Source: Leucoraja erinacea (lineage: Eukaryota). Taken from it: a stretch of 64,000 nucleotides of DNA. Below the pieces are notes generated by a model. That model ran no database searches and was not told the DNA's origin. It saw only the letters and a program-made list of their open reading frames with translations. This document shows positions 6,973 through 61,339 of this stretch, piece by piece; position 1 is the stretch's first letter, and each line of letters starts with the position of its first letter. The position numbers were made by a program, and so were the translations under genes. The DNA is taken from the NCBI RefSeq assembly GCF_028641065.1, contig NC_073413.1:7750001-7814000 (forward strand), read 5' to 3'.

Positions 6973-7386
6973 TTAGATGCCCTTCTGCTTCAGATAGCTG
7001 GCCATCTCATGGACCTTCTTGTTGAGGACTCCACCGTGGACTCCTCTTTTGCCCATTACAAACACCATGGTCTTGATGGTTTTGCCGATGCAGATGCTCT
7101 TGCATTGTCCGCCTTTCATCCGAACGTCCATCACCCCATCGTTATTGACCAGCAGGTTGTCCCTGATGACGGAGCATTTCTTCCCTCCGATGGTGATGCC
7201 CGTTTGCAAGAAAGCCTTGCGATCTTGCCCAATTAACATGCTGACCTCTTGAGGGGAGATGGCGGCCAGTATACCACCGGGCTTGGACGCCCACACTGCC
7301 TTGTTGTTGACGTGGCCCACAATGGCAACGTCTTCCACGTTCTTATCCTTCAGGATACTGTTGATGTAGTTCTTCCAGTCCGACAT
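6973..7386 (-). CDS. PFN3: Profilin-3-like, intronless, 137 aa
   Basis: MSDWKNYINSILKDKNVEDVAIVGH...VWASKPGGILAAISPQEV...CSVIRDNLL...MGKRGVHGGVLNKKVHE resembles recalled PFN3 (single exon, 137 aa); ATG at 7386 in AAGATGT context. Confidence 0.88.
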   Translation of the reverse strand: MSDWKNYINSILKDKNVEDVAIVGHVNNKAVWASKPGGILAAISPQEVSMLIGQDRKAFLQTGITIGGKKCSVIRDNLLVNNDGVMDVRMKGGQCKSICIGKTIKTMVFVMGKRGVHGGVLNKKVHEMASYLKQKGI

Positions 7387-15200: not shown

Positions 15201-18200
15201 TCTCTGTTGCTAGGACAAGGTAATGGATGTTACATATGAGCCTCCAGCAATGGCGGCTGGAAGACAGGTGTGAAATGTATTTACCTTTTTGGACGGGGTG
15301 TGAAATGCGTCTCCTCAGACTGTGCTCCAGAAGCTGGTGTGTTCTTGTTGGACTTGCACCCGCCATCAACCTCACTGTCGTTTCATGCAAAAACATCTGG
15401 AAGAAATTTCCAGCATGTAAACCATTTAAAGAGAGAATATTACACTCACTTTAGTTTAGTTTAAAGACACAACGCAGAAACAGGCCCTTCGGCCCACCGA
15501 GTCTGCGCCGACCGGCGATCGCTGTACACTAGCACCATCCTTCACACTAGGGACAATTCTCAGTTTATACCAAAGCCAATTAACCTACAAACCTGGACGT
15601 CTTTGGACTGTGGGAGGAAAAAGGAGCACCCAGAGAAAACCCACCCGGTCACGGGGAGAATGTACAAACAGCGTCCGTAGACAGGATCAAACCCGGGTCT
15701 CTGGGGCTGTAAGGCAGCAATTCTACCATTGTGCCACCGTGCCGCCCCATCACATTTCATTCACCCATCCCCCTGAATACATCCTCCCTTCTAAAACCCT
15801 CTACGACCCAACCCTGTGGCCTCAACCACTTGCGGGTTCTCATTTCAATAACTGTCCAAGTAAATCAATTCAAACACCAGCAACACTGATGGTCCTACCA
15901 CTAAAAATAGCTTTTTCCCCCCAACCAAAACTTAACTTTTAAAACATTTTGTGCATCAGTATCACAGCTGCCTCTGCAATAATAGAACTGTTTCATGTCT
16001 TTTAAAGTAGAAATCCCTAAAGGGAAAATATTAAAGCAGCTGCAACTGGTCTTGGATTGAAAGGTATTCTCCCATAATTATACTCTACACCCTCAGACAA
16101 ATAACATTGTGTCTTTACCAGCTGAGAAGTCGATGCCTATTTTGTGACATTACCACCCAAATACAGAACAGGAATAGGTCCCGGCCAACGTTCCATTATT
16201 CATGAATGGACTCTCACCACAATTATTACACAAAATATTGCACAAATCAGTTGATAGCAGGGTATTGCTATAATTGATAGAAAAATTATGGGCTAATATA
16301 ATTATGATCTTTTGCCCCAATTTGTAATAAGTGTCGAGGCCCTGAACATGTTCTGTTTACTTACCTTACGATGTGCTGGTTTAAAAGTCTGTCCAAGCTT
16401 CCTGAGACTGCTCAAGTCTTGTTGGAATCCTTTCAGTTCCAGACTTGATGCTTGATAGGCCTCTCCCACGGCTTGGCTGGAATTTGCTTGTTTCTGCCAC
16501 AAGGTTGTACGAATTGAGAGCAAAATGTCGCAGATCAACAATTGCACTGCCTGCCAAGAACAGAAAAAATCAAAATGTCATTGCCAGACAAGTAAGCAAT
16601 GATAATCCAAGCTTTCCCCCCCCCCCCCCATCTTACGATAAAATATATTTCACATCACCATCCTTTCTCCAATTTTGCATCAATCCATCTTAAAAAAATG
16701 AAGGGATGTACATTAAAAATAATGAGAACATATTATTGCATCTGCAAGGTTGCTCATAGAAACATAGACATAGAAACATAGAACATAGGTGCAAGAATAG
16801 GCCATTCAGCCCTTCGAGCCTGCACGGCCATTCAATATGATCATGGCTGATCATCCAAATGCTCCGATAGTTCACTGCTCTTGGGACTTTGGTAGAGCTG
16901 TATTGACAAGATTTACCAGACCTTGGTTGTTACTCCAAAACCCCAGCAAACTTTTCTATTGCTTTTCTTTAAACATGTTATGCACTGTTGTGAATTTTCC
17001 AGTGTAAATGAGTATAAAAGGGAGCAGGAAATATAAAAGCAGCCTGAACCTCGGCTCCAGCCTTGCTCCTGACCTCTGGTGTTTGGGACCCCAACCCTTC
17101 CTCCAACTGCACACCAGGCCCACAGCTGGAGCCCAGCCTCAGCTAAACTCCACACCCTCACTCAGGCACATGGCCCTCATGCATCCTTGACCATCGACTC
17201 ACATTCCAGACTAACGTGTGAGCCACATGCTGAACCATCAGGATCCATATCTATTTGATGATATCAATGCGAAAAATGGAGAAATCAAGAAGATATTTTT
17301 CTTATCAGTGGTGGGATTGCAGGACTCACTACCCTTTATACCATGTAAATAAATAGCAGAGGTGTATTTGATGGGAGGTTATACGTGCAGCTACAAGCTT
17401 ATAACAGTTGGGTAAAATGGCCAGTTTCCTTTGACAGACATATTCAAGGCTGGGTATTGTTCAAGAAAGGTCAGATGTGCAGTTAAAAATCTTGCACACT
17501 GGCCTCATGGTGAAAGGACATCACCAGCCATGAATGAATTGTAAGACCTGGATTATGGTGAATCGTGTGTTCACTTGCCGATGCCCAGGGCACACCTCTG
17601 TATTGCACTGCAGACACATTGCACAACATCGCAGGCACATGCAATGCAACTACAATGCACCCCAGAGGCCACCATCTCATTTTTGAAAGACCTGAGCACA
17701 CCTTTGCCCTGCCTTCAACTACAAAAGCAGCAGAATTTCTACTGCAATATGGCTGATTTGTAGGTTTTAAAGCTGCAGTTTGGACAGTGCAAGTGTTTGC
17801 TGAGATGCAGGAACCTCGTTGCTATTGCTAAGGCGCGGAAACCATATGAAACAATGGGATGACGCCAACGAACAGCTCCGTACCTGGTGAAGCTTCGTAT
17901 CCTGGTGTGGGCTAGAGACGGACAAACTGTTGCATAGATATCCACTGGCCCTCTCACAGCGCAGGAACGTTGTCTGGTGAGCATCTCGTTTCCCCAAGAG
18001 AGTTGTCTGCATCGCTTTGCAGATGTGAAGAATAGCCTTTGGCAATGAGCTCCTATATTTGGGAGACAAGAAAATAATTATGCAATGGTGACAAAAAAAA
18101 TCAATATTTTCTTGCAGAGTTAGATTAACACCGTTGTTGAAGAATAAATGACGATTAGAATGTTTGCAATTATAATTCTCGTGCCCCCTAGTTTTACATG

Positions 18201-33200: not shown

Positions 33201-36200
33201 ATGCACTCATACAATTCAAAAAGCTGGTAGTATTAACAGTCTTGGGAATGGTTGATGGAAATACGTTAACAGAAGCAGAAATAATTAAAAAGTGATCAGC
33301 TCTTCCACTCCATTTTACAAAAATGCATTTAGCTTTGATGTGCCAAGTGCAGACTATGATTCTTCTGAAGAGCATATATTTAATATTAAAATTTATCTTT
33401 GTGGTTAGCAACCCAAAAATTCAAGTTCCTTGCAAAAATCTAAAAGTAAAACTGAAGATGCTGAAAATAAAAAATAAAAATATAAAATGCTGGAAATACT
33501 CAGCAGGTCAGGCCGCATCTGTGAGAACACAAACAGTTAACTTTTCGGGTCGAAAACCTTCCTCAAAACAGCTGCCTTTGTTAACTCACAGGGGACAAAT
33601 GCCAAGAGCTAGGTCCTTCTATTTTTGATGAAACCGATAGTTTGGCATTAGTCAAAGGAAATTAAAATATTTAACAGGAAGAAATCTTTACAAGAATAAA
33701 TGAGATATCCACCTATCACTTGCCAGACTTTGCCAACCCCCCTCCTTTCTAGTATTCTCCCCACTACTATAATCAGTCTGAAGGAGGGTTCAACTTCTGA
33801 CCCAAATTGTCACCTGTCCATTCCCTCCACAGATGGTGCCTGACCAGCTGAGTTTCTCCAGCACTTTGTATTTTGCTTAATAGTCAGTTAATGTCATCCT
33901 TTTAGAGTGGATATTCCTACTTAATAGTCATCTAACAAGTAAATGGGTGACTTGGACCTTTGGAAAAAGCATACTTACTGGAACCTGCTGCATCTGTGGT
34001 GCGTGAGTTCGGACAGTGGTGGTGGTGGCGGGGGTTAGCGTCTGAATGGTGCCTGTGGTGGCTGATGTAAGCATCCTGTGGGTTGACAGGCCCTGCACTT
34101 GCTGCTGAAATGTGATTGGCTGCACCTGTGAGGAAGTGACCAGGTTCTGTAGCTGGGACTGAAGAACTATAAAAATATCCAAGATTAAAGTAAGCAAAGC
34201 CAAGTTAATGACAGAAACAATCGTAATATTCCTAATGCCCCTGTCCCACTTAGGAAACCTGAACGGAAACCTTTGGAGAGTTTGTTCTCCACCCAAGGTT
34301 TCCGTGCAGTTCCCGGAGGTTTTTGTCAGTCTCCCTACCTGCTTCCACTACCTGCAACCTCCAGCAACCACCTGCAACCTCCGGGAACCGCACGGAAACC
34401 TTGGGTGGGGTGCAAAGTCTCCAGAGGCTTCCGTTCAGGTTTCCTAAGTGGGACAGGGGCATTATTCCTCAATTAAATCAGGTACCACCCGATGCACAAC
34501 TCTACATATATACATTTGACAAATAGGTAGATGATGAGGAAATTCATTTGATTGCAGGGAAGGGCCACAATTAAGAGCCTGAGTGGGAAAGAGGCGAATG
34601 TTCCACGAAGACAGATTCACAAATCACAATGATTGGAATACAAGTTAATAGACACAAAGCAAAGTATTGTGAGTTCAATCTAGTGGGATATCATTGCAAA
34701 TCAGGAAAGTTATCCCAAGTTAAGAAAATATATTTTCAGAAATAACAGTAGTTTTTTTTTCTTCTTCCTCATAACACATCATTTTTCAATTGAATTACAA
34801 GAACATTATTCAGAATTATTGAATATAATAAAGGATTCAGGTGATTCCTCGTTTATCAAGTTTTTATATTATTCTCTGTTCATGCATGCCAACTCTCCTC
34901 AGATTCAATCACCCATCTATACATCGTGAAAAATTAGCAGCCAATTAACCCACTGTTCAGCATATTTTTAAGATGTGGAAACAGGAGCATCCAGAAGAAA
35001 TCCACATGCCGCAGGGATTATGTGTAAACTTCTCCTGGACAGCACCCGAGGTGAGGATTGAACCCAGGTGTCTGCACTGTGAGACAATGGCTCTAGATGC
35101 ACAACTGTGCTGTCCTTTTGATAAGAACACAAAACTCTTGGCCACAATGTATGAAGCTTAAACCTCAAGTGTACTGCTCCCTGTGTTGAAATCAGGATGT
35201 TATTTCGTACACCGACAATTAATGTGGATTCAAAGGCCACTTTAATCATGAATTCCACTCAACCACAAGATTCTAAAAAGCTATCTATGTAAACACATAC
35301 CTGAAAATCCTCCTTGATTCTGGTAAGCGAGCACAGGCTGTTGAATAATCCGAGTCTGCGTTGGTGCAGAGGTAAAATTTGATGTTATCATGAACGTTTG
35401 TTGTGGTTGTGTGTGCGGTGGGCGAGGGTGAAGAACAGGGGTGATCCTTTGGGTTACAGGTGAAGGAGTCTGTGGGAGTGTTGGTGGCATGGAGGTTTGA
35501 ACTTGTTGCTGCACCAGTTGCTGCTGTTGTACTAGTTGCTGTTGTTGTACCTGTTGCTGCACTAGTTGTACCTGTTGCTGCACTAGTTGCTGTTGCTGCG
35601 GCTGTTGCTGCACTAGTTGCTGCGGCAGTTGCTGCACTAGTTGCTGCGACTGTTGCTGCACTAGTTGCTGCGACTGTTGCTGCACTAGTTGCTGCGTGTT
35701 GCTGCACGAGTTGCTGCACCAGTTGCTGTTGCTGGGCCTGTTGCTGCACCAGTTGCTGTTGCTGCGGCTGTTGCTGTACCAGTTGCTGCTGTTGGAGTGG
35801 CGCTTGTTGCTGTACCAGTTGCTGCTGTTGAAGCGGCGCTTGTTGCTGCCCTCCTTGCTGTGGTAGAGCAACTGGAGGCTGGTCAAGCTTGTCGCATCCT
35901 GCCAGACCATTGCTGAATTGTTCAAACAGGTCAGGAAAATCACCAACTTGACCATTGACAAATTGCAGCATTTCTATAAAAAGATAATGAAATTATTATT
36001 ATTGTGGAACAAAGATACACTTTCATGTGAGCCACTTATTTCCTCACAACATAGCACTAAATACAACATGTTAATGCTCAAAACCAAGATCAGTAACCGT
36101 ATATTTAGGCTGTGGGCCGAGGAGCTTTTTCGTTCAAGTTCGTGACCCAACTCATGGAACTACCTGAATTTACAACATATTGTGTAAAAATATTATATAA

Positions 36201-39200: not shown

Positions 39201-41397
39201 ATATACTGAAGCTTGTGGAATTGCATTTCAACATCCAGATGGCGGTGAATGTGTGGAATTCATTGCCATAGATAGCTGGGGAAGCCAAGTCGTTGGATAT
39301 TTTTAAAGCGGATATTGATAGGTTCTTGATTAGCAAAGGCATCAAAGGTTACGGGGTAAAGGCATTTCATTGAGAGGGAAAAATAGATCAGCCATGATTG
39401 AATAACGGAGTACTCGAAGAGCTCAATGACCTAATTGTGATCTTATGTCTTATAAATTTATGAAACCTCAATTCCCCGATTCATACCTGAATACTAACAA
39501 TGAGTAAAGGCTGACAACATGGAATATTCTGTGTTATTCTTGAAGAAACACAGGTGCTTATAAATTCAAGATTCAAAACTTGCTAAACCTCAACATGTGT
39601 TCACTTATGTCAATGATTCTGGGTGCATTATTTGTAGAATATGACATGAAAAGGAAGTTAGATATGCATTTCACGGGTGGATAATAGTCATCATTGGGAT
39701 CAAGCAGTTTTTCCTCAGGCCATTTAGGATTGAGATGATGAAAAACTTTTTCACCCAGAGAGTTGTGAATCTGTGGAATTCTCTGCCATAGAAGGCAGTG
39801 GAGGCCAATTCACTGGATGTTTTCAAGAGAGAGTTAGATTTAGCTCTTTGGGCTAACAGAATCAAGGGATATGGGGAAAATGCAGGAACGGGGTACTGAT
39901 TTTGGATGATCAGCCATGATCATATTGAATGGCGGTGCTGGCTCGAAGAGCCGAATGGCCTACTCCTGCACATATTTTCTATTTTTCCAAATTAAATTAG
40001 CGGTCATAAGGTGAAGGACAAATACTTGTCACATTTACAAGGTGATTTTCTAGATCAATATGTTGAGGGAATAACTAGGGAAATAGCTAATGTAGATCTT
40101 GTATGGCGCAATCAGACGGCATTATTTAATTAAAAAGTTCACAATGTGCTGGAGTAACTCAGTAGGTCAGGCAGCATCTCTGGAGAACTATGATAGGTGA
40201 CATTTTGGGTCACGATTACCTTTCTTCAGACTTATTCAGGATTATTTAATAAATTTGTTATTAGACATTTCACAATTTATTTCAGATCAAGATATTTTCC
40301 ATCATGAGTGATATTCAAAAATATGGACAGGCTAAATGAAAGGTAATCAGCAGATGGAGGAGAATGCAAGGTGGTGGAATAAACAAGAAAGGCAGAGATT
40401 TTCTTTATAAAGGTGAGAGACTTAAAGAAACGTGTTCAGGAAGACCTCAGCATTCTTGTATAACACGGGCACATGCAGATACGGGAAACAATTAGGAATA
40501 AATGGTAAATTGGTCTCCATTTCAAAAGGTTGTTTACCATGGCTGGAAGTCAATCATTCAGGACAGAAGAAATTACATCATCCAATGGATATGGGGGCTC
40601 ACTAGCTTTGTATATATAAGACACAATTCCATAAAGGTCTTGGATTTGGAATCCAAAAGTTATATTGTTATGGAAATCAATAGTTAAGCAGTTAGCACAG
40701 GAAAACGGTGCTGAATGAAAACACCAGCCATGGTCTTATGGAACTGACAGCCGATTGCCCTACTTCCACGTCTATTTACGTTTTTATTCAATTGTACACA
40801 GATAAGGTAATAGGTATAGGCGAGTTAACCTAAGCAGGAAGGTGAATAATCAGTTGGCATAGATTTAACATTAACAGAATCTTCAGGGAAAATGACTCAC
40901 TGCCTGAAAGTCTTTTGGAGGCAGCAGATTTCGACACATTTAAAAATGATGAGCTCGATCTGCTGTATAATGATGCCAAGCAGGAACTGGAAAATGGAAC
41001 AAGCCTCAATCGGATTTTATTAGGCAGCATGGGCATAGTGAGTATGATTGAAGACAAGAAACACTGATCAATAAAATGAGGTTCACTATTTTACATAAGT
41101 TACAAAGTCGTGATATATTCAAAAGCCACACTGAACTTGTTACCTCTTATTAATTAACCCCTAATGCTAAGGAAAGTAAATAACTAGAACTACCTTATAC
41201 CCACTTTCCCCACACATATATTCAAAACAATATATTTTCTATGGGTGACATCCAATATCCAGGTGTATCGCATCCTGAGAGATCGGGTAAGCTGAGCAAA
41301 ATATCGACTCACCATCTATATCCCCAAAATTGAGTCCCTCACTGAACTCAGTCAGTGAGGGGTCCATATTTTCAAGCGACATGTCTTCGTTCTCCAT
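12052..41397 (-). CDS. SREBF2: Sterol regulatory element-binding protein 2; 19 coding exons, 3610 nt as written (3612 nt = 1203 aa if the 2-bp exon 2 gap is restored)
   Basis: Acidic N-terminus FGDIDEMLQFV; bHLH with SREBP-specific Tyr ([10 protein letters not shown]); SPPxSDSG degron; two TM helices; RxxL S1P site; C-terminal regulatory domain; intronic miR-33; CCDC134 upstream as in human. Confidence 0.96.
13250..13445 (-). mobile_element. Penelope-like element ORF C-terminus (GIY-YIG region), degraded
   Basis: [11 protein letters not shown]...[13 protein letters not shown] resembles the Penelope ORF end; terminal repeat follows at about 12930-13050. Confidence 0.65.
14000..14930 (+). mobile_element. 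Old, heavily degraded CR1-type RT fragment
   Basis: Relics of RT-domain motifs with many stops and frameshifts. Confidence 0.5.
15285..15396 (-). CDS. SREBF2: SREBF2 exon 18
   Basis: [30 protein letters not shown]. Confidence 0.93.
15450..15748 (-). mobile_element. Full-length tRNA-derived V-SINE/HE1-like SINE
   Basis: A-box TGGCACAATGG, B-box GGTTTGATCC, core GTGGGTTTTCTCTGGGTGCTCC...TAGGTTAATTGG, (TAAAC)n tail. Confidence 0.8.
16365..16550 (-). CDS. SREBF2: SREBF2 exon 17
   Basis: [21 protein letters not shown]...[12 protein letters not shown]. Confidence 0.93.
17595..17667 (-). ncRNA. MIR33: miR-33 precursor hairpin in SREBF2 intron 16; 5p at 17660-17640, 3p at 17621-17601
   Basis: Minus strand reads GTGCATTGTAGTTGCATTGCA (canonical miR-33a-5p), loop, CAATGTGTCTGCAGTGCAATA; flanks CCTCTG/CAGAGG pair; same host intron as in mammals. 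Confidence 0.97.
17884..18052 (-). CDS. SREBF2: SREBF2 exon 16
   Basis: [14 protein letters not shown]...[12 protein letters not shown]. Confidence 0.9.
18930..19240 (-). mobile_element. V-SINE/HE1-like SINE
   Basis: Same family as 15450-15748. Confidence 0.7.
19544..19676 (-). CDS. SREBF2: SREBF2 exon 15
   Basis: [12 protein letters not shown]...WLQGDD...VERIPKSL. Confidence 0.92.
20235..20595 (+). mobile_element. CR1 LINE 3' fragment
   Basis: ttcttcagccagaaggtggtgaatctgtggaat plus CR1 3' UTR. Confidence 0.75.
20704..20813 (-). CDS. SREBF2: SREBF2 exon 14
   Basis: [17 protein letters not shown]; phase 2/1. Confidence 0.9.
21971..22064 (-). CDS. SREBF2: SREBF2 exon 13
   Basis: [25 protein letters not shown]. 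Confidence 0.9.
23459..23627 (-). CDS. SREBF2: SREBF2 exon 12
   Basis: GYFLRRAQ...[11 protein letters not shown]...SLFSSPRNP. Confidence 0.92.
23810..24282 (+). mobile_element. CR1 LINE 3' fragment with short nested insert
   Basis: CR1 ORF2 end and (CTATGT)n tail; extra segment 23888-23955. Confidence 0.8.
24519..24685 (-). CDS. SREBF2: SREBF2 exon 11
   Basis: [18 protein letters not shown]...EIYITAA. Confidence 0.92.
25060..25510 (+). mobile_element. 5'-truncated L1/Tx1-type retrotransposon insertion with poly(A) and 13-bp TSD
   Basis: ORF end [25 protein letters not shown]-tail; AGAAATCTCTGAG at 25047-25059 and 25511-25523. Confidence 0.75.
25978..26239 (-). CDS. SREBF2: SREBF2 exon 10
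   Basis: [22 protein letters not shown]...[18 protein letters not shown]. Confidence 0.93.
27236..27420 (-). CDS. SREBF2: SREBF2 exon 9 (TM2)
   Basis: [21 protein letters not shown]...[14 protein letters not shown]. Confidence 0.93.
28620..28795. mobile_element. Penelope-like terminal repeats fused head-to-head into a near-perfect palindrome
   Basis: gtagacaaaagtgctggagaaactc...ggcaacgtttcggccgaaacgttgcc...gagtttctccagcacttttgtctac. Confidence 0.7.
28916..29102 (-). CDS. SREBF2: SREBF2 exon 8 (TM1, S1P site)
   Basis: [34 protein letters not shown]...GRSML. Confidence 0.93.
29840..30021 (-). CDS. SREBF2: SREBF2 exon 7
   Basis: [10 protein letters not shown]...[15 protein letters not shown]. 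Confidence 0.92.
30310..30424 (-). CDS. SREBF2: SREBF2 exon 6 (helix 2 / zipper)
   Basis: [32 protein letters not shown]. Confidence 0.95.
30740..30907. mobile_element. Partial non-autonomous DNA transposon (Harbinger-like end)
   Basis: Ends gtgggacagggc-ttt, like the TIR at 34449-34461. Confidence 0.45.
30965..31189 (-). CDS. SREBF2: SREBF2 exon 5 (basic region / helix 1)
   Basis: [38 protein letters not shown]. Confidence 0.95.
33039..33185 (-). CDS. SREBF2: SREBF2 exon 4
   Basis: [16 protein letters not shown]...TTALQVP. Confidence 0.93.
33979..34166 (-). CDS. SREBF2: SREBF2 exon 3
   Basis: [25 protein letters not shown]...MQQVP. Confidence 0.92.
34236..34461. mobile_element. MITE (Harbinger-like) with about 85-bp inverted arms
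   Basis: TGCCCCTGTCCCACTTAGGAAACCTGAACGGAA...TTCCGTTCAGGTTTCCTAAGTGGGACAGGGGCA; TAA/TTA flanks. Confidence 0.85.
35301..35973 (-). CDS. SREBF2: SREBF2 exon 2 (Gln-rich; apparent 2-bp deletion at 35696/35697)
   Basis: [19 protein letters not shown] in one frame; [12 protein letters not shown]...YQNQGGFS in another. Confidence 0.85.
35500..35850 (-). repeat. Coding CAG/CAA-rich minisatellite encoding (QQQQLV)n
   Basis: Imperfect repeats of CAGCAACTAGTGCAGCAACAG. Confidence 0.9.
36108..37544. mobile_element. Non-autonomous DNA transposon with TA flanks, 14-bp TIRs and internal (TTAGGG)n tracts
   Basis: GGCTGTGGGCCGAG ... CTTGGCCCACAGCC; subterminal inverted similarity GTGACCCA...GAACTAC. Confidence 0.7.
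39720..39985 (+). mobile_element. CR1 LINE 3' fragment
   Basis: tttcacccagagagttgtgaatctgtggaattct plus 3' UTR. Confidence 0.85.
41313..41397 (-). CDS. SREBF2: SREBF2 exon 1 (coding part)
   Basis: [28 protein letters not shown]; gtgagt donor, phase 1. Confidence 0.9.
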
Positions 41398-41499
41398 TGC
41401 TTTAACAGTGTGGTGGTGAAAATATTACTTTCTGGGGGATAGTGATAATGGGAGCGTGACTATCCCCAACCCCACTCCCTTATTGATAAGAAACGTTGG

Positions 41500-41810
41500 C
41501 GTATCCGCCACTTTCGGGCAGCATTGTTGTTGTTATTCTCGATGGCGGCGGTGCTTCCTCGGTGACAGCGGCGCCATCTTGCCGGCCGTTCGAGCCGCCC
41601 TCCCTCCCCAGGCCCCGCCCCCGCCCGCGCGGCGTCCGGCTCGAACGGTGGCGCGAGCGGCGGCCGTTCGTCGTGTCGGGGAACACGAGATAGCGGACGG
41701 CCAATGGGCCCGCGCTCCGCCCGGTGGGGCGATGCGGCGTCACGGCCGGTCGTCATGGTGACGCGGCCTTAGTCAGAGCCGCCCGCCCGAAGCCTGCGGT
41801 CTCGGTGAGG
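41500..41810 (-). promoter_or_regulatory. SREBF2 CpG-island promoter: SRE-like ATCGCCCCAC (41733-41724), inverted CCAAT (41701-41705), GC box (41613-41620), YY1-like AAGATGGCG (41580-41572)
   Basis: Motifs read directly; SRE plus NF-Y is the established autoregulatory architecture of mammalian SREBF2. Confidence 0.75.
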
Positions 41811-41823
41811 TAACCCACTTATT

Positions 41824-42310
41824 ATATGCGCTGAAGTAGTTGTAATGAGGTACACGCAGTTGCATTGAGTAATATGCACTGAAGTCGACTTGTAATGAGG
41901 TACACGCAGTTGCATTGAGTAATATGCACTGAAGTCGACTTGTAATTAGGTACACGCAGTTGCATTGAGTAATATGCACTGAAGTCGACTTGTAATGAGG
42001 TACACGCAGTTGCATTGAGTAATATGCACTGAAGTCGACTTGTAATTAGGTACACGCAGTTGCATTGAGTAATATGCACTGAAGTCGACTTGTAATTAGG
42101 TACACGCAGTTGCATTGAGTAATATGCACTTGAGTAATATGCACTGAAGTCGACTTGTAATTAGGTACACGCAGTTGCATTGAGTAATATGCGCTGAAGT
42201 AGAGTTGTAATGAGGTACACGCAGTTGCATTGAGTAATATGCACTGAAGTCGACTTGTAATTAGGTACACGCAGTTGCATTGAGTAATATGCACTGAAGT
42301 CGACTTGTAA
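41824..42310. repeat. 50-bp minisatellite, about 9.5 copies, plus a detached copy at 42978-43070
   Basis: Unit GCACTGAAGTCGACTTGTAAT(G/T)AGGTACACGCAGTTGCATTGAGTAATAT. Confidence 0.95.
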
Positions 42311-42977
42311 GGAATCATATGGTGCAACACAATTGTAAAACCTAACTGTTTCAGGACTGGATGAGGGATGGTCAAGATTATAAACAATGATCTCCTTACC
42401 TTTTTGTTTTTGTTTATTTGTTTATTTATTTTATGTCTTATTCTCTTCTTTCTGAACAAGGGGTCACAGTTTAAGGATAAAAGGGGGAAATCTTTTAGGA
42501 CCAAGATGAGGAAAACATTTTTCACACAGAGAGTGGTGAATCTGTGGAATTCTCTGCCACAGAAGGTAGTTGAGGCCACAGTTCATTGACTATATTTAAG
42601 AGGGAGTTAGATGTGGCCCTTGTGGCTAAAGTGATTAGGGGGTATGGAGAGAAGGCAGGTACAAGATACTGAGTTGGATGATCAGCCATCATCATATTGA
42701 AGGGCCGAATGGCCTACCCCTGCACCTAATTTCTATGTTTCTATTTTCTTTTCCTCAACTTTCCTCACTCATTCGTCTTTTTTCTTTTTCTTCACACACT
42801 ATATATCTCACGCCTTTCTATCCTTTACTATCTAATTTATTTTTCTTATTCTCATCTTTCTTTATTATAACAAAAAAAAAGAAGCTGTACATAAAATGTA
42901 TTATGAATATATATATTAGGCACTTTGGTGCCATATGATTGTACCTGTAATACTAATAAAATATTAATATTTTAAAA
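42311..42977 (+). mobile_element. L1-type 3' fragment with nested CR1 fragment (about 42458-42742), inserted into the minisatellite
   Basis: ggaatcatatggtgca resembles the ORF end of the 25060 element; AATAAA/A-rich end; CR1 [14 protein letters not shown] inside. Confidence 0.6.
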
Positions 42978-45900
42978 GAAGTAGAGTTGTAATAAGATAC
43001 ACGCAGTTGCATTGAGTAATATGCACTGAAGTCGACTTGTAATGAGGTATATGTACTGAGGTAGACTTATGACACGATAGAACTTTATTTATCCCAGGAG
43101 GGAAATTGATCTGCCAACTACAGTCATAAAAAATACAAAATACATGAAATTAAAGTGACGAGTGGAAAGGATTGGGGAGAGGAGAGTCAGTCTACTTCAC
43201 GACAGAAGGAGGAGTTGTACGGTTTGGTAGCCACGGGGAAAAACGATCTCAAGATTCAAGAGAGTTTATTGTCATGTGTCCCTGATAGGACAATGAAATT
43301 CTTGCTTTGCTTCAGCACAACAGAACATTGACTACAAACTATTGACTTAATCTCCTGTGGTGTTCTGTGCTGCATCTTGGTGGAATCAGTCTGTTGCTGA
43401 AGGTACTCCTCAGGTTGACCAGTGTGTGTCACGGAGGGGGCGAGCAGTTAGTATATTTGGCCCAAGCTGGAGGGGGTGAGCTGTATTGTCCGCAGTTTGA
43501 GGCAAAGATCCTATAGCGAGCTGAAGGATCTTTGGTTTGAGGAACATCCCGAGTACTCCCCTCCAAGACCACCTCCCATGAATCCAACTCCGTCCCCAGG
43601 ATAGAGTCAGCCCTCCTGATGAGTTTGTTAATCCTGTTGACGTCTGTCGACTGTCTTATAATATGCACTGAGGTTTGAGTTGACATATGTCCCAGATAGA
43701 ACAACCCGAAATGTCACCAATTCCTTCTCGGCAGAGATGCTGCCTGTCCTGCTGAGTTACTCCAGCATTTTGTATCCATCATTGGTGTAAATCACCATCT
43801 GCAGTTCCTTCCCACACAGAACAATGGAATTCTTGCAGCAGCACAACAGAATATGTAAACATAGTACTCTGTAAACAATGTAATAAATGATACACGTGTG
43901 TGTACATACTCACACACATAAAACAAACAAACTATAATAGTGCAAAAAGACAAAACCAATGCCCCTAGGTCTGTGTAGTTTAGAGCTTATTTGGAGGTTG
44001 CTGTGTTTAATAGCCTAATGGCTGTAGGGAAGATCCCTATCCATGTTCTCCAGAGATGCTGCCTGATCCACTGAGTTACCCCAGCACTTTTTTGTCCTTT
44101 CAGCCCTTGACTGCCATTGAAATGCAAATCATCAGAGCACAGAAGCAGGATTGAAGAATTTATTTTACCTTTGCCTCTCAAATTTTTTTACTCTGCTTCC
44201 TTTTTCTACCTTTTCTACACCTTTTTTTTCATCCTGTATATTTATTTGTTTATACCATATTTATTTTTCAGGCTTCGTATATCCTTGTGGTAAGGATGTA
44301 TATTACAATCAAAGAGCACAGGAAAAGGTCTTCATAATACAAGGTTCATAACTCTCCAACTCTTGGATATTATTTTGTCTTTGAACACATTTGTTTATCA
44401 GTCATAAAAATGCCAGAAAAGGCAAGGAGGGAGTTTATTTATATGGAGAGATATTGGGAGATGAGATGTTGTAATCTTGAAATCAACATTAGAAACCATT
44501 AAGTCATCGGTGGAGATGCTAAAATAGGCAAATATGTATCGCAATGACTGAAGGGAAAATCAGGGGAAAGCACATGCAACATCTTAATCAGTGTAAGTCA
44601 AATAGAAACTTAGAAAGGTTAAATCGGCTAACATTAAAAATTTCCATCATGTATGAACATTTTCAAAGAAAGGAAAAGCAGAGTTCAAGAATAAAGGACT
44701 TTATGAAACCTGTTAACAGTGTTGCATTGTAGTTGGTATTTGAATTTAACAGTTTTAATCAATAACAGCCCCTCAGGTTTTCTTGGAATTTAAAAAAATT
44801 TAAATCAAACAATATTCATGCCATTGATAAAAGCCATTACTATGTAATTTAAAACTTGCCTTAACAATGTTACATGCTGGGATATCTGGAGAGGGTGCAT
44901 ATAGGTGTACATCACAAAAGTAGGCCCTTCCTTCCACTAAATCTCTGCTGACCATAAAACAACCATTTACACATATCCATTTTATTCTGTGTAAGAAAGA
45001 ACTGCAGATGCTGGTTTCAATCAAAGGTTGACACAAAATGCTGGAGTAACTCAGCGAGTGAGGCAGCATCTCTGGAGAGAAAGAATTAGCGATGTTTCGG
45101 GTCGAGATCCTTCTTCACTGAATGTTATTCTCGTTTTATTCTCTCCGTAAGCCCATCAACTCCCACCAGTTTCTACCACTCAACTGCAAATTGGAGGCAA
45201 TATTTCCAATTAACTCCAATGGTAATGGCCAATTAACAGAACAACCTACACATTATAGTGACATACAGCACAAAAACAGACCCTTTGGCCCATAATTACC
45301 ATGCTGTTCATTGTACCTATCTGTATTAATTCCATTTACGTGCATTAGATTTCTAGCCTGTGTCTCAGCAACTGACTTATCCAGATAGTTCTTCAATATT
45401 GTGGGAGTATGGACCTAGGCCACCTCTTCAGACTCCAACTACCCTGTGTGAAAGAAAAACTCACTCAGACCTACTCTAAACCCAGTGTGCTTGGTTCCTA
45501 CTCCTCACCTTCATATGTACTTTTGTTCTAGACACCTCCACCACTACCTTATCAATCCCTTTCTTAATTTTATTTACCACTGTCAGGTCACCCACTGCCT
45601 CCTCTGTCTCAGGGTAAACAAAGGTCGCCTATCCGATCTTTTCCAATAAATGAAATGCTCCCATCCAGCTGAATTTCCTCTGCAGCCTCTCTAGCACAAT
45701 CCTGTCCTTCGCTCTAAGATCTTTGATCCTGTCCTTCGTTTCTTTAATGGGGTGACCAGAAATGTATGCAACACTCAAAGTGTAGCCATACCAATGTTTT
45801 ATAAAGCTGTAACATGATGTCCTATATTCCATGCCACAGCCAATGAAGGGGTATCCCATAGGCCTTAATTACTACTTTATCCACCTGTGTTGCCACTTTC

Positions 45901-47415: not shown

Positions 47416-49075
47416 TTTCCTCCTCAACTATTTCTCCATCCTCCCCATACCAATTATTCTTATCACTGAATTTTGTACCCAACTTCAAGATTATTCAGTT
47501 CCACTTCTATAACATTTCTGCCTCTGCTCTGAAACCATTTCATCATGTTTCATCGTCATGGCAAACTTTATATTAAATCATATGCAATTATAAGTTGCTG
47601 ATAATTTGTCCAATTTTTCCCCTTGATTTTTTTGTAACAGTGAAACTAATAAAAGATCTCAAATCCAAATTCTAATAACAAATCTCTACTGTATTTCTTT
47701 TTTGCTTTCTTTCCCACCATATTGGCAGAGGGATGAGCCAAAATGAGTTGCAATAAGTTGTAAAGCACATTATGGCTCAAACAAAAAGGAATTGTAAAAG
47801 ATTTATAAAATAAAACGTATGACAACTTAAAAATGTAATTTTTTGAATCTCATGAATCACATTTATTCTTTATCCCCTCAACTCGACATATCCTCTCAAA
47901 TGTCAGCAAGCAATAGAATTCTTTGCATTTAACAAAAAATAATATATTTACCTAACCACTGAGACACTTCTATAGCACCGGTAAATTACATGATTTGTAA
48001 AAGCAATTATGACCTGCATTCTTTAGTCAGATTGGTACAGTGCACTGAAATTCCAAAGACACTGAAGGGGCTCCTTGTAATTTACGTAAGTTATGAAGAG
48101 AATAATGGGAAACACAACCTTTTCCTGGTTCTCCCTCCATAGATGCTGCCTGATATGCTGAGTATTACCAAAATGTTTTGTTTTAATTCCACACAGATAA
48201 TATCCCAAACCTTGAGGTTCTGAGATGAATGGTGGCAGCATTAAATGTTTACATTCTTTTCCGTCCAAATCAGACGTATTGAATAATTATTTGGCTCTTC
48301 AAAAATTTACCTGGCTAACCTTTATATACATCCTAAGCATCATAGCAGGAGTTTATCAAGTAAAATTTGACATAAAACCATATACATATTAGAACAGAGG
48401 TAGGTTTTGCAAAATATCTTAGAGGCAAAAAGTTGGGGAAAAGGACTCCCTATATATAATATCTATATATGGGAGATGCATAATATCATTCATTATTTTA
48501 ATAATGCATAATATCATAAATGTATTATATCAGATGCATAATATCATTCATTATTTTAAATAAACTGAAAATCTCGTTTGGTGACCGTAGAATTGGAACA
48601 TTCAGCCTATGAGTACTATTTTATGTGTACTGCATAGGATTGAAGAAATCTGTCAGTATTTAAGATCATTCATATTTTTTTACAACCCTGCTTTTTATTG
48701 TGAAATTGGAAAACCAAAAGTTCAACCTATATTGCACAATAGCGTTGGTACCTGCTTAAATTAATTCATTATTTAACAGTCATGAAAGAAAAGGTTTGTT
48801 AGCTCAGATACTGGGATTTTCACCAGCATTTCAGGAATTACATTCAGTAATTCAGACCTATTTTATTTACATGAATCAAAACAAATGCAGGCTTGATGAC
48901 ACTGCTTCTTTCAATTAAAGGTAGCAGCTCCAATGATGGCAAATACATAAAGGCTACCACCATCTTGAAATAATTTTCTTCAACCTTGTATAAGTATTGA
49001 TGGCAATGAAATATTTGTAGCAGCTCCAGTCAACAGTATAGTAACAGTTTTAGCAATTGTCATATTGCTCAGTGG

Positions 49076-49201
49076 TCATAATTCAGATCTAGTCTTTGAA
49101 ATTCTTGGCCCTTTTCGAAGCTCCTTCCTCTTATCTTCTTTTTTTCTCCTTTTCTCCTCATCCTTAAAGGCTTTACGAAAGGCATCAGTAGTCTCGATAA
49201 A
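49076..49201 (-). CDS. CCDC134: CCDC134 last coding exon
   Basis: [41 protein letters not shown]. Confidence 0.93.
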
Positions 49202-56494: not shown

Positions 56495-59400
56495 GATCTA
56501 AGAGACTACTTTAAAAGATAGACATTTGTTAAATATCAAAAGAAACAGATTTCCAAGACGAACAGTTTAAGGGGATTTTAGATCCATTCTATTTCTCACT
56601 GACATCTTTAACACACAGAAAGATTCTGGATGAAGTTTTTTGCACAGTGGAAAAATAATGAAAGCTGAATTGTACACACTTTATGCAAAATGCAAAAATT
56701 TTAATGTTACATTGAAAACTGAACTACATCTTACCCATTGCGCAGAATTCTCAAACTGGTCAACTGTTTCTAGTGGCAGCTACACCACATGTATTTCTGT
56801 TCAGTAAATGATAGCCCTCCCACACTCACATGCAGGCTAGCTTTACATTGTTCACTGTTCAGGCAAGGATTCCACATGTACCACATCTTAGAGCAGGTTC
56901 TGGATCTCTGTCCAGCAGTTCCAAGTAGTGTTGACTTCAGAGTATTTGCTGTCGGTGTCAACTTGTACAATGGGATTCACTAGCACTGATTAAAAAATAC
57001 ATCACTAACTGAAACATTAACTTTGTTTCTCACTCCATAGATGTTGCATGACCTGGTATTTTCCGTTTTACCTACATGAATGTCCCTATTTCCCTGATGT
57101 TGATGGATGGGTCTCATCCTGTTGGATAGGGTCATTCAGATCTGCGTCTGTTTTCTTGTTGTGCTCTGGAATAGATGTTCCAATTTGCCAGACTACTCAG
57201 AACATAGAAAAATACAACACAGGAACAGGTCCTTTGGCTCACAATGTCTGTGCTAAATATGATACCAAGATAAACTAATGTCATCTGTCTGCACATGATA
57301 GAGACAGCTCCCATCTCACTGCGTCCCATATTGCTGAAGTCAAATGACTAAACCTGCATCACTCCCCATTTCGGCAGAATAGCAGTGATAAAGTTGTAAA
57401 TCATACAACCATCACAACACAAAATTACAATTCTATTTATCTTGGAAATTTGAAATAAAAATAAGTTTCTGGAAGTGCTCAGTAGATTCTGCAACATTTG
57501 TCAGAAAATTGAGTTAATGTTTCATTCAGTGACCAATCAGTCAAAACACTCACTTTCTGCTTTTTTCCTATAGGGCAAAAAGGGTAAAATGTACATACAA
57601 ATACCCATGCATACAAGTATTATGTTTACATGCCCATCTGTAGTGACTGGGCCCTCCTGCTTACTATTTAAAAATCCAATTATCCACATTATAATACCCA
57701 TTTACTTCCCGTGATTATACGGTTAAGTATTATAGGTTAGAAATGTTAATTTAACATGCAACAAATCCTTTTGAGTGTTGGCTAAGTGTTCTCAATCAGT
57801 GTGGAATTACAGCTGCTGCTGTCTGGTGGAACTCTCCTTGAATCTAAGGTAAAATACCAGGATTGAGGAAACAGTCCAGTAGCAAAAGGAAGATTGAACT
57901 TTAGTAATGCTTCCGTGTTAATGACTTGAGACAAAAGGGCTTGAGAGGGAAGGAACTATTGTTTCATCTATCTGGTTAGAAACTGAGGCCCAAAGTTTAT
58001 TGTGATAGTTTAAATTTTCTGTCCCCTGTTATTCTCTTACTCGTGCCTATTACTTCATAAAACCACAGTCTGTGGTCAGGTAAATTATTGCTGTGAAAGA
58101 GTATTTATGGATCATATACTTTTCATACCAACACAGCAGAGATCAGCAGCTTATTTTAAAAACGCAACCAATATGGCACAATTCTTGCATTATTTTTGTT
58201 AGAAGCAACTATTTATATTCTTGAAAAACAGTTTAGTATTTCTAGTCATCTATCCAAGGCCTACAGCTGATAATTGAGGCTGGAAACAGAGTGTGTTTTA
58301 CACAATATGGTGTATCTGACAATATTGGTGGGAACCAACCTGTGCTGAAGAGAAATCCACCCATTCTCATCAACCTGGTAGGGGTGCAATATAACAATCA
58401 GGGGTGTAAGTACCAACTGATTTCCCTCCCTTCCTCGCCTCAGTCACCCAGAGATACGGTAGTCAATAAGTGTGACCATTGCTGAAGTTACCTAACACAA
58501 GACCAGAATTCAACCTGGGGTCTTCCACCCCATGCAGAACAGTTGAAGATTGACATTAGTGTCAGTGAGAAAAACACAAGCAGGCACTTTAGCCCATGAT
58601 CCAATGCTGATCATCAACCACCCATTTACACTAATCATGAGTACATGTTTTAATTCTCAGCACATTCTCATCAACTTCACCTACGTCCTACCACTCACCT
58701 AGGGAAGCAGGTACATGCTCTCCCTTCAAAGTGGCAACACAGGTAGACAGGGTGGTGAAGAAGACGTTTGGCACCCTTGCCATCATTGGTCAGGTTATTA
58801 AGTAAGGAGCTGGGATGTCATCCCAACTCCTTACTCTGTGCAAGACATTGGAATAGCCACATTTGGAGTACAGTTCTGGTTGCCCTGAGAAAGGAAGGTT
58901 TTCATTAAACTAGAAAGGGTGCAATAAAGATCTGCATGGTTGTTTAGGAAGGAACTGCAGATGCTGGTTTATACCAAAATGCTGCAGTAATTCAGGTCAG
59001 GCAGTATCTCTAGAGAAAGGGAATGGGTGACGGGAGGGTTTGAGTTATATGGAGAGGCTGGATCTTTTCCCTGGAGCCAAGGAGGCTGAGGGCTAACTTC
59101 TTAGAGGTTTAGGAATCATAAGGGCAATCAATAAGGTGAATAACCACAGTCTTTCCGCCAGAGTGGGAGAGTCTAAAACTCGAGAGCACAGGTTAGAAGT
59201 GACAGGGGACAGATTTAAAAGGAACTTGCTGGGAAAGCTTTGCACACAGAGGGTGGTGTGTACATGGAACAAGCTACAGAGGAAGTGGCAACAACTGCGA
59301 GTACAATTAAAATACATTTGCACAGGTACAAGTGGGGGGATATGGGGCCAAGCGCAGGTCGGCATGGAGGGGTCGGGTAGTACAAGGGCCTCCATCCCTG

Positions 59401-59539
59401 ATAGACACGAAATGCTGGAGTAACTCAGCGGGCCAGGTCGGGTCGAGACCCTGTTCAGACTCAGAGATGCTGAGTTGCTCCAGTATTTTGTGTCCAGTTA
59501 CGGTTTAAAGCGGCATGTGCTGGTCCATCTTCCACCCTC

Positions 59540-59826
59540 CATCCCTGACACCGGCCGACACCGAGTCCCGGGGCCTTCAGGAGCCGCTCACCATTCACCT
59601 GAAACAGCGAGCACTGCGGGGAGGAGCCCGGGGCTACCGGCGGCAGCAGTGGGCCGGCCCTCGGCTACTGCAGCGCAGCGCAGCGCAGCGCACAAGGGAA
59701 CGGTCGGGCCTACCGAGCGGGAGCGGGAATCATTGAGGAACCTCCGCTCACCTCCAATCCCAGCGCACAACTGACTGCGCATGCGCCTCCTGGCGGGCGG
59801 GGCTTTGCGCCACGCGCAGTGACCGC
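59540..59826 (-). promoter_or_regulatory. CCDC134 CpG-island promoter and non-coding exon 1 (donor near 59591); NRF1 site TGCGCATGCGC 59776-59786, GC box 59795-59803
   Basis: GC/CpG-rich; motifs and GTGAGC donor read directly. Confidence 0.7.
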
Positions 59827-59956
59827 GCTGCCAACGGGGCTGTCACTCAAACCCCAGGCTGCCAACGGAGCTGTCACTCAAACCCCAGGCTGCCAACGGA
59901 GCTGTCACTCAAACCCCAGGCTGCCAACGGAGCTGTCACTCAAACCCCAGGCTGCC
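59827..59956. repeat. 31-bp minisatellite, 4 copies plus a partial
   Basis: Unit GCTGCCAACGGAGCTGTCACTCAAACCCCAG. Confidence 0.95.
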
Positions 59957-61339
59957 GGAGTGCACAGGAGTCGCTGCAGCAAAGCCGCCGCCACATGCAC
60001 ATGCACAATACAGCTGTTTCAATACAATACAATTTATTTGTTGTCATTTGAACCCAGAGGTTCAAACGAAATTTGGTTTCTGCAGTCATACAAACAAGAA
60101 GAAGAACCAAGACACAACACAATTTACACGAACATCCATCACAGTTTGCGGGGTTCGGTGAGCCGCGGGACTGTTTGTGCCATCGCCCAGTGGGGAATCG
60201 CCTCAGCGCAGGGGGAGAAGAGGAGGGAAGAGACTGCAGCCCTAAGATTTTTGCCTCCACCACAGTGCTTGGAGGATGCACTGTGGTGGATGTTAATTTG
60301 TGTTTATTGTTGTTTATTATTGTATGATTGTATGTATGACTGCAGGCACGAAATTTCGTTCAGACCGTAAGGTCTGAATGACAATAAAGGTATTCTATTC
60401 TATCTATCTCCTCCTCACTGTGATGGAAGGCAAAGTCTCATCTCTCGCCTGCACTCCTCGTTCACCTCCCAATGTCAGAGTCAAAGCCCCCGGCGGGCGA
60501 TGGTAAATAAACACATACGACCTTAACAGTCTGCGCAGATTTTTGACCGACTTGCATTCTTTCTGAATCCAGGTTATTACCGTGGATTAAGAGTCCGGCA
60601 TTAATGGATGACATTAATTGTCCAAGGCCAACAGCATTATAAATGACCCCACACATCTCCATCATGGACTCTTCACTCTGCTGACCAAAGATACTAGTAT
60701 CTTTGCTGCTGACCTGGGCAAAAGGTATCGCAGTATTAAGCAGAACGGCCAGGTTCTGCAACAGCTTCTTCCCCCGAGCCATCAGACTCTTGAATTCCAT
60801 ATAATGTGCCGCCACTATTATCTATTTTATCCTTTTGTTATTTTATGTTGCGCGGTGAGCCAGATGCAACAAAATTACATTCAAACTTGCATTTGTTGGT
60901 ATATTTTTGAATGACAATAAAGTCTGAGTGATTGATTGACATTCAGTGCATTACTGCTGTCTCATAACAGCTGCTTTGAACAATTTCTAACTTTCATCCA
61001 GACAATCGTGTGTCACCAGCTTTTAAAGGGGGTTCCTGGTAGATTAGAATCATATGGCTCGGTATAAAAGCGGGGAATCTAGGACAGATACCACCCCTTC
61101 CCTCCAGCATTTTCCTTTTCCTGTTTTCATTCCCTTTTAAGAAGCTAATACTGCAGATTTAACTGCCAGTGTGCAGGACTGTCAAGCTTCCTGGTGCATC
61201 TCCTAATTTCATCTTTGTGAGAACGAATGACTTCAACTCTTTCTGCTAGTTTCTTACCTCTGTATCCGGTCATTGCAATATACATTTACAAAGTTAAAGC
61301 TTCCAGATACTAGCTATTCTGCATTAGAAATAATTCAAA

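Follow-up and report, generated by a model that had tools for sequence, protein, structure and literature searches.

In a window of 64,000 nucleotides from Leucoraja erinacea (contig NC_073413.1, positions 7,750,001 to 7,814,000 of the forward strand; all coordinates below are positions within this window), the DNA just beyond the putative SREBF2 promoter contains a 50-bp minisatellite whose units carry an 8-mer site for miR-33-5p, the microRNA encoded in an intron of SREBF2 itself. The explanation that we consider most likely, with a probability of roughly 0.5, is that this promoter minisatellite is neutral and that a divergent antisense RNA runs through it. The founding unit probably matches miR-33 by chance, its expansion by ordinary replication slippage and the neutrality of the resulting array are likely, and the array was later split by a retroelement, with all ten sites descending from one unit. 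On this best reading the consequences are small, the array being a promoter minisatellite with a striking, probably accidental likeness to a neighbouring microRNA.

The mir-33 precursor hairpin (17598-17665, minus strand) matches Rfam family RF00667 with 70.5 bits (gathering score 50), and the miR-33-5p sequence used here was taken from it. The exons flanking the hairpin align to the SREBF1 paralog and the bHLH exon matches SREBP structures; we take the gene to be SREBF2 rather than SREBF1 because of its synteny with CCDC134. Exon 1 (41313-41586, minus strand; ATG 41382, splice donor 41313) is defined by an RNA-type contig of run X5 that covers 41313-41586 and departs from the genome at 41313, and its translation runs MSLENM...GDID. 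Adjoining it is a GC-rich putative promoter (41587-41823), in which a motif scan finds what we take to be GC boxes, a CCAAT (41701) and an SRE-like 10-mer (41724). On the far side of the array is CCDC134, whose last exon (stop 49076-49078) and approximately 1.2 kb of 3′ UTR (together 47839-49201, minus strand) are identified from RNA-type contigs of run X1 and by translation, with PF15002 exons lying upstream; a search of metagenome contigs for CCDC134 loci returned none. The SREBF1 paralog hosts an identical miR-33-5p, and the 7.5 kb upstream of it contains no 8-mers, compared with 11 upstream of SREBF2, a difference that speaks for the neutral reading. An ancient element common to the upstream regions of the two paralogs was sought in the same 7.5 kb and rejected, the closest exact match of at least 10 bases upstream of SREBF1 being about 27 kb away.

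The array (41824-42310) lies upstream of SREBF2 exon 1, starting about 240 bp from the exon and about 90 bp beyond the SRE-like box. TRF reports a period of 50 with 93-97% matches, and division into units yields nine head-to-tail copies, with variants interspersed among them, each containing the 8-mer on the minus strand, together with two incomplete copies, one of 15 bp and one that closes the array. The ten plus-strand TGCATTG positions, the array, its period and its strand are all as given in the preliminary description, and because a T precedes every TGCATTG the minus strand reads the 8-mer CAATGCAA. That description spoke of ten tandem sites; ten 8-mers do exist, but only nine are in tandem (with the 15-bp partial among them), and the tenth (43008) lies in a split-off tail (42978-43073) that continues into a decayed monomer of one half-unit, half A, as recognized by alignment and by matches to the half-A pattern. 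The intervening 667-bp insertion (42311-42977, plus strand) is a 5′-truncated, A-tailed dispersed repeat with a second repeat nested inside it (42456-42744). It has 1737 candidates genome-wide, and among 11 copies compared eight align from exactly 42311 and all end at 42967-42983; a 15-bp near-direct repeat of unit sequence flanks it. The copy at 43008 was considered as an independent solo site and rejected; it is the array tail severed by the retroelement, and all ten sites therefore represent one event and one founding unit.

The unit is unique to this single locus and is not a dispersed satellite. Exact genome-wide matches to its 17-bp core all fall inside the array or its tail (10 of 10), DNA-search matches to the unit are all at the array locus (5 of 5), and so are 11 of the 15 half-A pattern matches, the other four being isolated elsewhere; the confinement of these matches mostly to the locus rules out a dispersed satellite or a transposon-derived unit. 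Another decayed half-A monomer, found by blastn of the unit, lies past more dispersed repeats at 43655-43690. The more decayed monomers pair poorly with miR-33 (predicted −7.5 kcal/mol for the one in the split-off tail and −13.9 kcal/mol for that at 43655-43690), an observation that supports the neutral reading.

The alternative register of pairing noted in the preliminary description is real, with 18 pairs over nucleotides 1-19, 10 of them contiguous and exact, one bulge, and −24.4 kcal/mol; when the entire minus strand of the window is scanned, only the 3′ arm of the miR-33 hairpin itself outscores it. The miR-33 likeness of half A, first counted as 13 of 19 positions, also holds up (14 of 21 ungapped positions), and half B is similar to each of the two arms of the hairpin family. 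The 8-mer is present in 14 of 5000 dinucleotide shuffles of the unit, and −24.4 kcal/mol is reached by 4 of 5000 such shuffles, by 1 of 5050 genomic 50-mers and, on the real unit, by 47 of 3000 shuffled miRNAs; the two-half score is equalled by 5 of 1500 dimer-type null units. Mock miRNAs for the chance estimates were shuffled miR-33 together with genomic or Markov 21-mers. Given about nine other tandem repeats of period at least 20 in the window, the chance for the 8-mer alone is a few percent window-wide. We conclude that a miR-33 8-mer in a tandem unit is unusual, not decisive. The unit may have grown out of short sub-repeats, TGCA-rich and about 10-11 bp long. Since miR-33 is itself a near-dimer of a TGCA-rich motif, a single lucky match would account at once for the seed, for the 3′ pairing and for the second register.

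In the seed register, 8 of the 10 array sites are predicted to pair nucleotides 2-8, 10-12 and 13-19 with one G:U. The same 3′ architecture arises in 92 of 5000 draws of the 8-mer with random genomic flank, and the 8-mer together with this architecture, a criterion set after the site had been seen, in 37 of 200,000 sub-repeat-type null units; the frequency of 3′ pairing given the 8-mer rises from 2/385 to 37/503 once null units have sub-repeat structure, a rise that favours the neutral reading. The TDMDfinder rules, as set out in the available text of PMC8887481 and as applied here, class these eight sites as 'predicted', a category that requires a matching seed, 7 or more 3′ pairs in a row with no more than one G:U, a bulge of 2-8 nt and an energy ratio of at least 0.7. 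The sites have 7 consecutive 3′ pairs including one G:U, a 4-nt bulge, and energy ratios of 0.70-0.76 as computed with ViennaRNA, not with the pipeline of the TDMDfinder authors. The high-confidence class calls for 6 canonical 3′ pairs and a ratio of 0.8 or more; the sites fall outside it because the G:U divides the 3′ block into 4 + 2 canonical pairs and the ratio is below 0.8. The predicted fit to published TDMD-trigger criteria is a borderline one.

The seed and 3′ pairing in eight sites, and their 'predicted' class, argue for a tentative alternative in which the sites form a selected miR-33-5p cluster on a rare or tissue-restricted sense RNA, comprising a few ancestral sites and a separate 13-nt site (below) and later amplified to ten. 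The carrier would be a long CCDC134 3′ UTR isoform or a promoter-upstream SREBF2 RNA, and the cluster would act as a miR-33 decoy, decay trigger or nuclear docking site in an SREBF2/miR-33 feedback loop. Mammalian miR-33a/b are described as ZSWIM8-sensitive with no trigger proven by deletion in the portion of PMC13631368 available to us, which would leave room for such an element. Against it stand the exclusion of the sites from the high-confidence class and the predicted partial pairing of the array seed (unpaired probability 0.38).

A single-copy site that is absent from the preliminary description was found by the minus-strand scan at 44722-44735 (minus strand), in a region unique in the genome. 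It is a perfect 13-nt complement of miR-33-5p nucleotides 2-14, with A opposite nucleotide 1, on the same strand as the array sites, and lies about 1.1-1.5 kb from exon 1 after subtraction of inserted repeats. The chance of such a site is about 0.002-0.04; as a held-out match it is equalled by 157 of 100,000 mock 21-mers on one strand of the intergenic region. Its 14-mer is not enriched genome-wide (33 observed against 46 expected under a Markov model; 10 for the reversed control), which we count for the neutral reading, and its flanks have no homology to the 32 other genomic copies. Structure prediction puts the site in an open minus-strand loop and rates it more open than 31 of those 32 copies, none of which has as good a predicted flanking stem; the site does not have the 3′ block needed by the TDMDfinder rules. 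An independent, predictedly accessible site on the same strand is a point for the selected cluster, and with the rarity of the 3′ architecture in null units and the low depth of the RNA data (below) we count it against the neutral reading.

Both features might also reflect descent rather than function, miR-33-like pieces having been copied in by an old hairpin-arm duplication or a templated insertion and having then decayed, with one of them seeding the minisatellite. We regard this as unlikely. In its favour, miR-33 is read in the sense direction on the plus strand at the array and the 13-nt site alike, half B resembles both arms as noted, and an 8-bp direct repeat bounds the 25-bp stretch that contains the 13-nt match, an arrangement shared by 2 of 32 control sites. 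Against it, homology to the loop or flanks of either mir-33 locus does not extend beyond 10 bases, Rfam gives no mir-33 match with E of 10 or less within 41780-45000, the plus strand shows no hairpin signal (fold z 0.20), and the putative insertion has no A-tail. A degenerate mir-33 gene cluster was rejected on the same RF00667 and plus-strand fold results. The minus-strand fold z of −2.23 was set aside as evidence because the shuffles destroy tandem structure.

RNA evidence comes from contigs of X1 and X5, two of 17 runs that are presumed, not registered, to be RNA (the small shares in the other 15 carry no weight here), and from raw reads of the stranded RNA run X24; X18 and X22 are two of six probable DNA runs. 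X24 is a poly(A)-selected library of unstated tissue from another, related organism (organism D), of which about 6% of one run was used. Reads were placed on the first unit and the split-off tail, the two points from which we judge position and strand within the array. Five X24 reads on the unit are plus-strand and none is minus-strand; the first mate is on the minus strand in all five, opposite to CCDC134 reads, which indicates plus-strand RNA. The five were found in two separate read placements and may be the same molecules, and three of them carry a change that turns the 8-mer into a 7mer-A1, a weakening of the seed that tells against the selected cluster. Neither X1 nor X5 has a contig on the array, and depth in both X24 and X1 is zero over five unique intergenic bins, one of which contains the 13-nt site. 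Depth is very low (3-5x on CCDC134, and no reads at all for SREBF2 exon 1 or for one real CCDC134 UTR bin), and the finding of no minus-strand RNA over the unit excludes only abundant poly(A) RNA in these samples.

Transcription of CCDC134 through the array, as first proposed, is not borne out in these low-depth data: the 3′ UTR contigs end at 47839, just past an AATAAA at 47867 and 5.5 kb from the array, the five bins are empty, and 18 minus-strand AATAAA lie between the CCDC134 stop and the array, so many intervening poly(A) signals also weighing against the selected cluster. Of the suggestion that the locus encodes a miR-33 sponge, the sites themselves stand, with the predicted 3′ pairing, the 13-nt site and the unique unit now added to them, and no minus-strand RNA is seen to carry them. 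The suggested plus-strand divergent RNA gains from all five stranded unit reads being plus-strand, few as they are and from a relative. In the neutral reading, a divergent plus-strand transcript from the SREBF2 promoter would cross the array, as these reads suggest; miR-33-5p sites would be read backwards in it, and it therefore could not bind miR-33-5p. The plus-strand orientation of the sole stranded reads is also what recommends the idea, which we think very improbable, that plus-strand repeats pair with miR-33-3p or the 3′ arm of the nascent precursor and alter miR-33 processing; there are just five reads, and either 3p arm is predicted to form a weak duplex (−18.0 kcal/mol vs −24.4 kcal/mol for 5p on the other strand).

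The first unit occurs at the same place in two related organisms, and the array is present in three organisms. In organism D a 50-bp tandem junction contig has about 2x single-copy depth (contigs give no copy number), and 42 extra bases adjoin the 13-nt site. The 10-bp core is unaltered in the first unit of both relatives, as a selected cluster would have it, but the relatives differ by just 10 and 16 substitutions in 681 bp, too few for unchanged sites to carry weight. Presence in three organisms, so close to the SRE-like box, would also suit an array acting as DNA, a copy-number-variable promoter element tuning SREBF2 through repeated factor-binding cores independently of miR-33. A GCGTG core and a CANNTG occur once each per unit, and we presume them to be such cores. 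This too is improbable: cores this short are common, a motif scan of the unit turns up neither an SRE nor an octamer nor a full TNGCGTG, and the array has tolerated a retroelement within it.

Were the selected cluster real, a microRNA would have a decoy or decay trigger encoded next to its own host gene, and the number of repeats would set the scale of that element. It is conceivable, if doubtful, that the DNA upstream of SREBF2 in this cartilaginous-fish lineage encodes its own miR-33 counter-regulator, a sense RNA that has a single near-perfect site along with a repeat-amplified block of as many as ten sites shaped like decay triggers; the copy number of the minisatellite would in that case determine miR-33 survival. 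A natural multi-site trigger would be directly useful for miR-33, which the accessible part of PMC13631368 presents as a ZSWIM8 substrate without an endogenous trigger proven by deletion.

Literature searches on miR-33 with CCDC134 gave no link by title or abstract, supplementary target tables aside (one paper concerns miR-330); those on miR-33 with the SREBF2 promoter and tandem repeats, on promoter-associated miR-33 autoregulation through its host gene, and on minisatellites as miRNA sponges through tandem binding sites gave only unrelated work by title or abstract, and one on miR-33 and SREBF2 in elasmobranchs found nothing. Several known systems are nonetheless comparable. Nuclear miR-589 acts at the COX-2 promoter, according to the consulted portion of a review (PMC5822656), and here too the microRNA sites are just upstream of a transcription start; miR-33, however, would act at its own host gene, and promoter RNA of the right strand is not seen here. 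At the human SREBF2 promoter an antisense RNA, SREBF2-AS1, is described in PMC10940719, whose main text, so far as available, makes no mention of miR-33; our five plus-strand reads fit such a transcript, and the human case is a point for the neutral reading. Known TDMD triggers include Cyrano for miR-7 and NREP for miR-29b, with ABCA1/HADHB a candidate for miR-33 (PMC8887481 and PMC13631368, in their available parts), and the array sites resemble them in the predicted duplex, where a central bulge separates the seed from a 7-pair 3′ block, and in that the miR-33 family is already reported as a ZSWIM8 substrate (PMC13631368, same part). They differ in being borderline in energy, in lying in a repeat with no sense transcript seen, and in standing beside the microRNA's own host gene. 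CDR1as/ciRS-7 is a natural multi-site sponge for miR-7, and the array likewise repeats seed sites for one microRNA, but no abundant carrier RNA was found for it in low-depth poly(A) data, and its copies are one recently amplified unit rather than separately conserved sites. Promoter-proximal single-locus minisatellites, of which the insulin-gene VNTR is the textbook case, resemble the array in its head-to-tail 50-bp units, its restriction to one locus and its position a few hundred bases upstream of a promoter; the difference is that the neighbouring gene hosts a microRNA for which the unit described here carries a site.

The window carries on its minus strand an SREBP gene whose bHLH exon matches SREBP structures and which, from synteny, we take to be SREBF2. 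A mir-33 hairpin identified with Rfam lies in one of its introns (17598-17665), exon 1, known from an RNA-type contig, occupies 41313-41586 (minus strand, ATG at 41382), and CCDC134 (PF15002, stop at 49076) lies upstream on the same strand. A pattern search for mature miR-33-5p gave two matches, both within SREBP genes, the only one outside the window lying on contig C20 in another SREBP gene, taken as SREBF1, with an identical 21-mer. The hairpin of this SREBF1-like paralog (G000:C20:17050626-17050716, loci L019 and L022) shares its 5p sequence with the SREBF2 copy and differs in its 3p arm. The array upstream of exon 1 was itself considered as a mir-33 gene and rejected. SREBF2 exon 2 (35285-35992, minus strand) includes a long low-complexity tandem repeat (∼35500-35860) with two open frames, of which one is rich in glutamine and the other in Ala/Thr, and one more miR-33-5p 8-mer lies on the sense strand (7100-7107, minus), about 8 kb past the last aligned SREBF2 exon. 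The CCDC134 3′ UTR contains a 28-bp tandem repeat (48474-48559) with several indels in relatives, and a GC-rich island at 59001-60400, possibly the CCDC134 promoter region, has a plus-strand open frame of 255 codons as well as a tandem repeat of 31-bp period (59827-59956).

The array (41824-42310, period 50) consists of nine site-bearing units, an internal 15-bp partial unit and a final partial unit. The preliminary description counted ten tandem miR-33 sites, and all ten TGCATTG positions are correct, each with an 8-mer on the minus strand, but the tenth (43008) is not an independent copy, since it belongs to the same array, which has been split. The interruption (42311-42977) is an A-tailed dispersed repeat of 5′-truncated type; among eleven fetched copies, the top matches of 40 scored from 1737 candidates, eight start aligning at exactly 42311 and all eleven stop at 42967-42983. 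A 15-bp near-duplication of unit sequence flanks the repeat, and decayed monomers of half A, one of the two ∼25-mer parts of the unit, lie further on at 43047 and 43655 amid more dispersed repeats. Together these features indicate that one ancestral array, derived from one founding unit, was split by a retroelement and that its left part then expanded. The unit is confined to this locus (10/10 exact matches to a 17-bp core and 5/5 DNA-search matches), and the array is thus a single-locus minisatellite. The eight full units vary at four columns, one of them within the 22-nt pairing footprint. A splice-donor-like GAG/GTAACC lies directly before the array (41806-41815, plus strand), and a divergent transcript splicing there could leave the array intronic.

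The array is also present in relatives. In both organism B and organism D a DNA contig joins the promoter and the first unit, that nearest the promoter, in one piece, so the array is older than these splits, and organism D has a contig with a 50-bp tandem junction. A 10-bp core is unaltered in both, although substitutions relative to the window (10 in B and 16 in D over 681 bp) represent a distance too short to test constraint.

How unusual is the match to miR-33? In a shifted register the unit is predicted to pair 18 of miR-33 nucleotides 1-19, with an energy of -24.4 kcal/mol; on the minus strand only the 3′ arm of the mir-33 hairpin itself ranks higher. This energy is reached by 4 of 5000 shuffled units, 1 of 5050 genomic 50-mers and, on the real unit, 47 of 3000 shuffled miRNAs; the 8-mer occurs in 14/5000 shuffled units. 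A score for both halves of the unit is reached by 5/1500 dimer-type nulls, 1/1500 genomic 50-mers and 2/1500 mock miRNAs. When plain DNA is aligned, 10-base matches are frequent, the paralog region giving 22 and 29 of equal score for each 120 kb strand. Descent from miR-33 with no present function seems improbable.

In the seed register, eight of the ten sites are predicted to pair nucleotides 10-12 as well as 13-19, the duplex spanning the unit junction. As applied here, the 'predicted' rules of TDMDfinder accept these sites (ratio 0.70-0.76) and its high-confidence rules do not, both as set out in PMC8887481. Given an 8-mer, 92/5000 random flanks have this architecture; 8-mer and 3′ pairing arise jointly in 2 of 200,000 plain 50-mers. 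Among 200,000 units assembled from four decayed 11-bp sub-repeats the count is 37, and this is the fair null because the unit has an internal periodicity of ∼10 bp and miR-33 is a near-dimer. All these figures overstate rarity because the criterion was fixed after the site was seen.

A further site, absent from the preliminary description, lies in unique sequence at 44722-44735, where the minus strand is perfectly complementary to miR-33-5p nucleotides 2-14 and adds A1. Any exact match of at least 13 bases has a chance of ∼0.002 on one intergenic strand (157/100,000 mock 21-mers). This rises to 0.003-0.004 when either strand is allowed and to 0.04 for the window. Genome-wide the 14-mer occurs 33 times (model expectation 46, reversed control 10), and the flanks here share nothing with those of the other 32 copies. 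Features chosen post hoc are a predicted open 29-nt loop with a seed more open than in 31/32 control copies, a 7-bp flanking stem (0/32 controls) and an 8-bp flanking direct repeat (2/32). The 7.5 kb upstream of the SREBF1-like paralog contain no 8-mer. Organism D (run X22) has ∼42 extra bases at 44719, directly beside this site. Other 14-mer copies (L056 at G000:C25:28092507, L037, L034 and L038), with stronger predicted pairing (-29.3, -25.2, -24.7 kcal/mol) or two copies less than 1 kb apart, are candidate natural miR-33 targets. An explanation that is unlikely but not negligible is that the array and the 13-nt site are miR-33 sites under selection, carried by a scarce sense RNA that would serve as a decoy, as a decay trigger or as a nuclear docking site. 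By a rough reckoning rather than a computation, the prior for function is low; the 13-nt site and the 3′ pairing lift it some twenty-fold, and the RNA result cuts it roughly by half.

That RNA result comes from contig sets X1 and X5 of organism A, guessed to be RNA (no data set is recorded as such), and from X24 of organism D, stranded poly(A) raw reads of unstated tissue, of which ∼6% were read and in which non-polyadenylated RNA is invisible. X1 contigs span CCDC134 from 49201 to 47839, ending just past an AATAAA at 47867; from the CCDC134 stop to the array the minus strand has 18 AATAAA. X1 and X24 have zero depth in five unique bins (44175-44873, 45340-45572, 47437-47669), the 13-nt site included, X24 being weak as a negative in that it has no read on SREBF2 exon 1 or in one real CCDC134 UTR bin. 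Reads were mapped to the first unit and to the tail beyond the retroelement. X24 first mates on CCDC134 are exclusively '+' (3-5x), and those of the five reads on the first unit (five starts) and the five at 43059 (three starts, organism D allele), possibly the same molecules, are all '-', so that both groups derive from plus-strand RNA. In three of the five first-unit reads a G>A change at 41867 reduces the 8-mer to a 7mer-A1.

We favor, at about even odds, a neutral promoter minisatellite. Slippage would have expanded a founding unit whose match to miR-33 probably arose by chance, and a divergent antisense transcript would read the array in the orientation unable to bind miR-33-5p. The array is probably an ordinary element, yet there is a real chance that it is a self-regulating miR-33 element.

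A literature search at listing level, covering few subscription papers, found no published account of this array. Among known systems the insulin VNTR is the comparison for a minisatellite and CDR1as that for a sponge; the array resembles a sponge or trigger on paper only, in its predicted site architecture. Seed pairing and 3′ pairing go together in most known triggers (PMC12863257), and miR-33a/b are ZSWIM8-sensitive, with ABCA1 and HADHB as candidate triggers assayed by overexpression alone (PMC13631368). For nuclear docking there is miR-589 at COX-2 (review PMC5822656). The divergent transcript proposed here would resemble SREBF2-AS1, the human antisense transcript described in PMC10940719.
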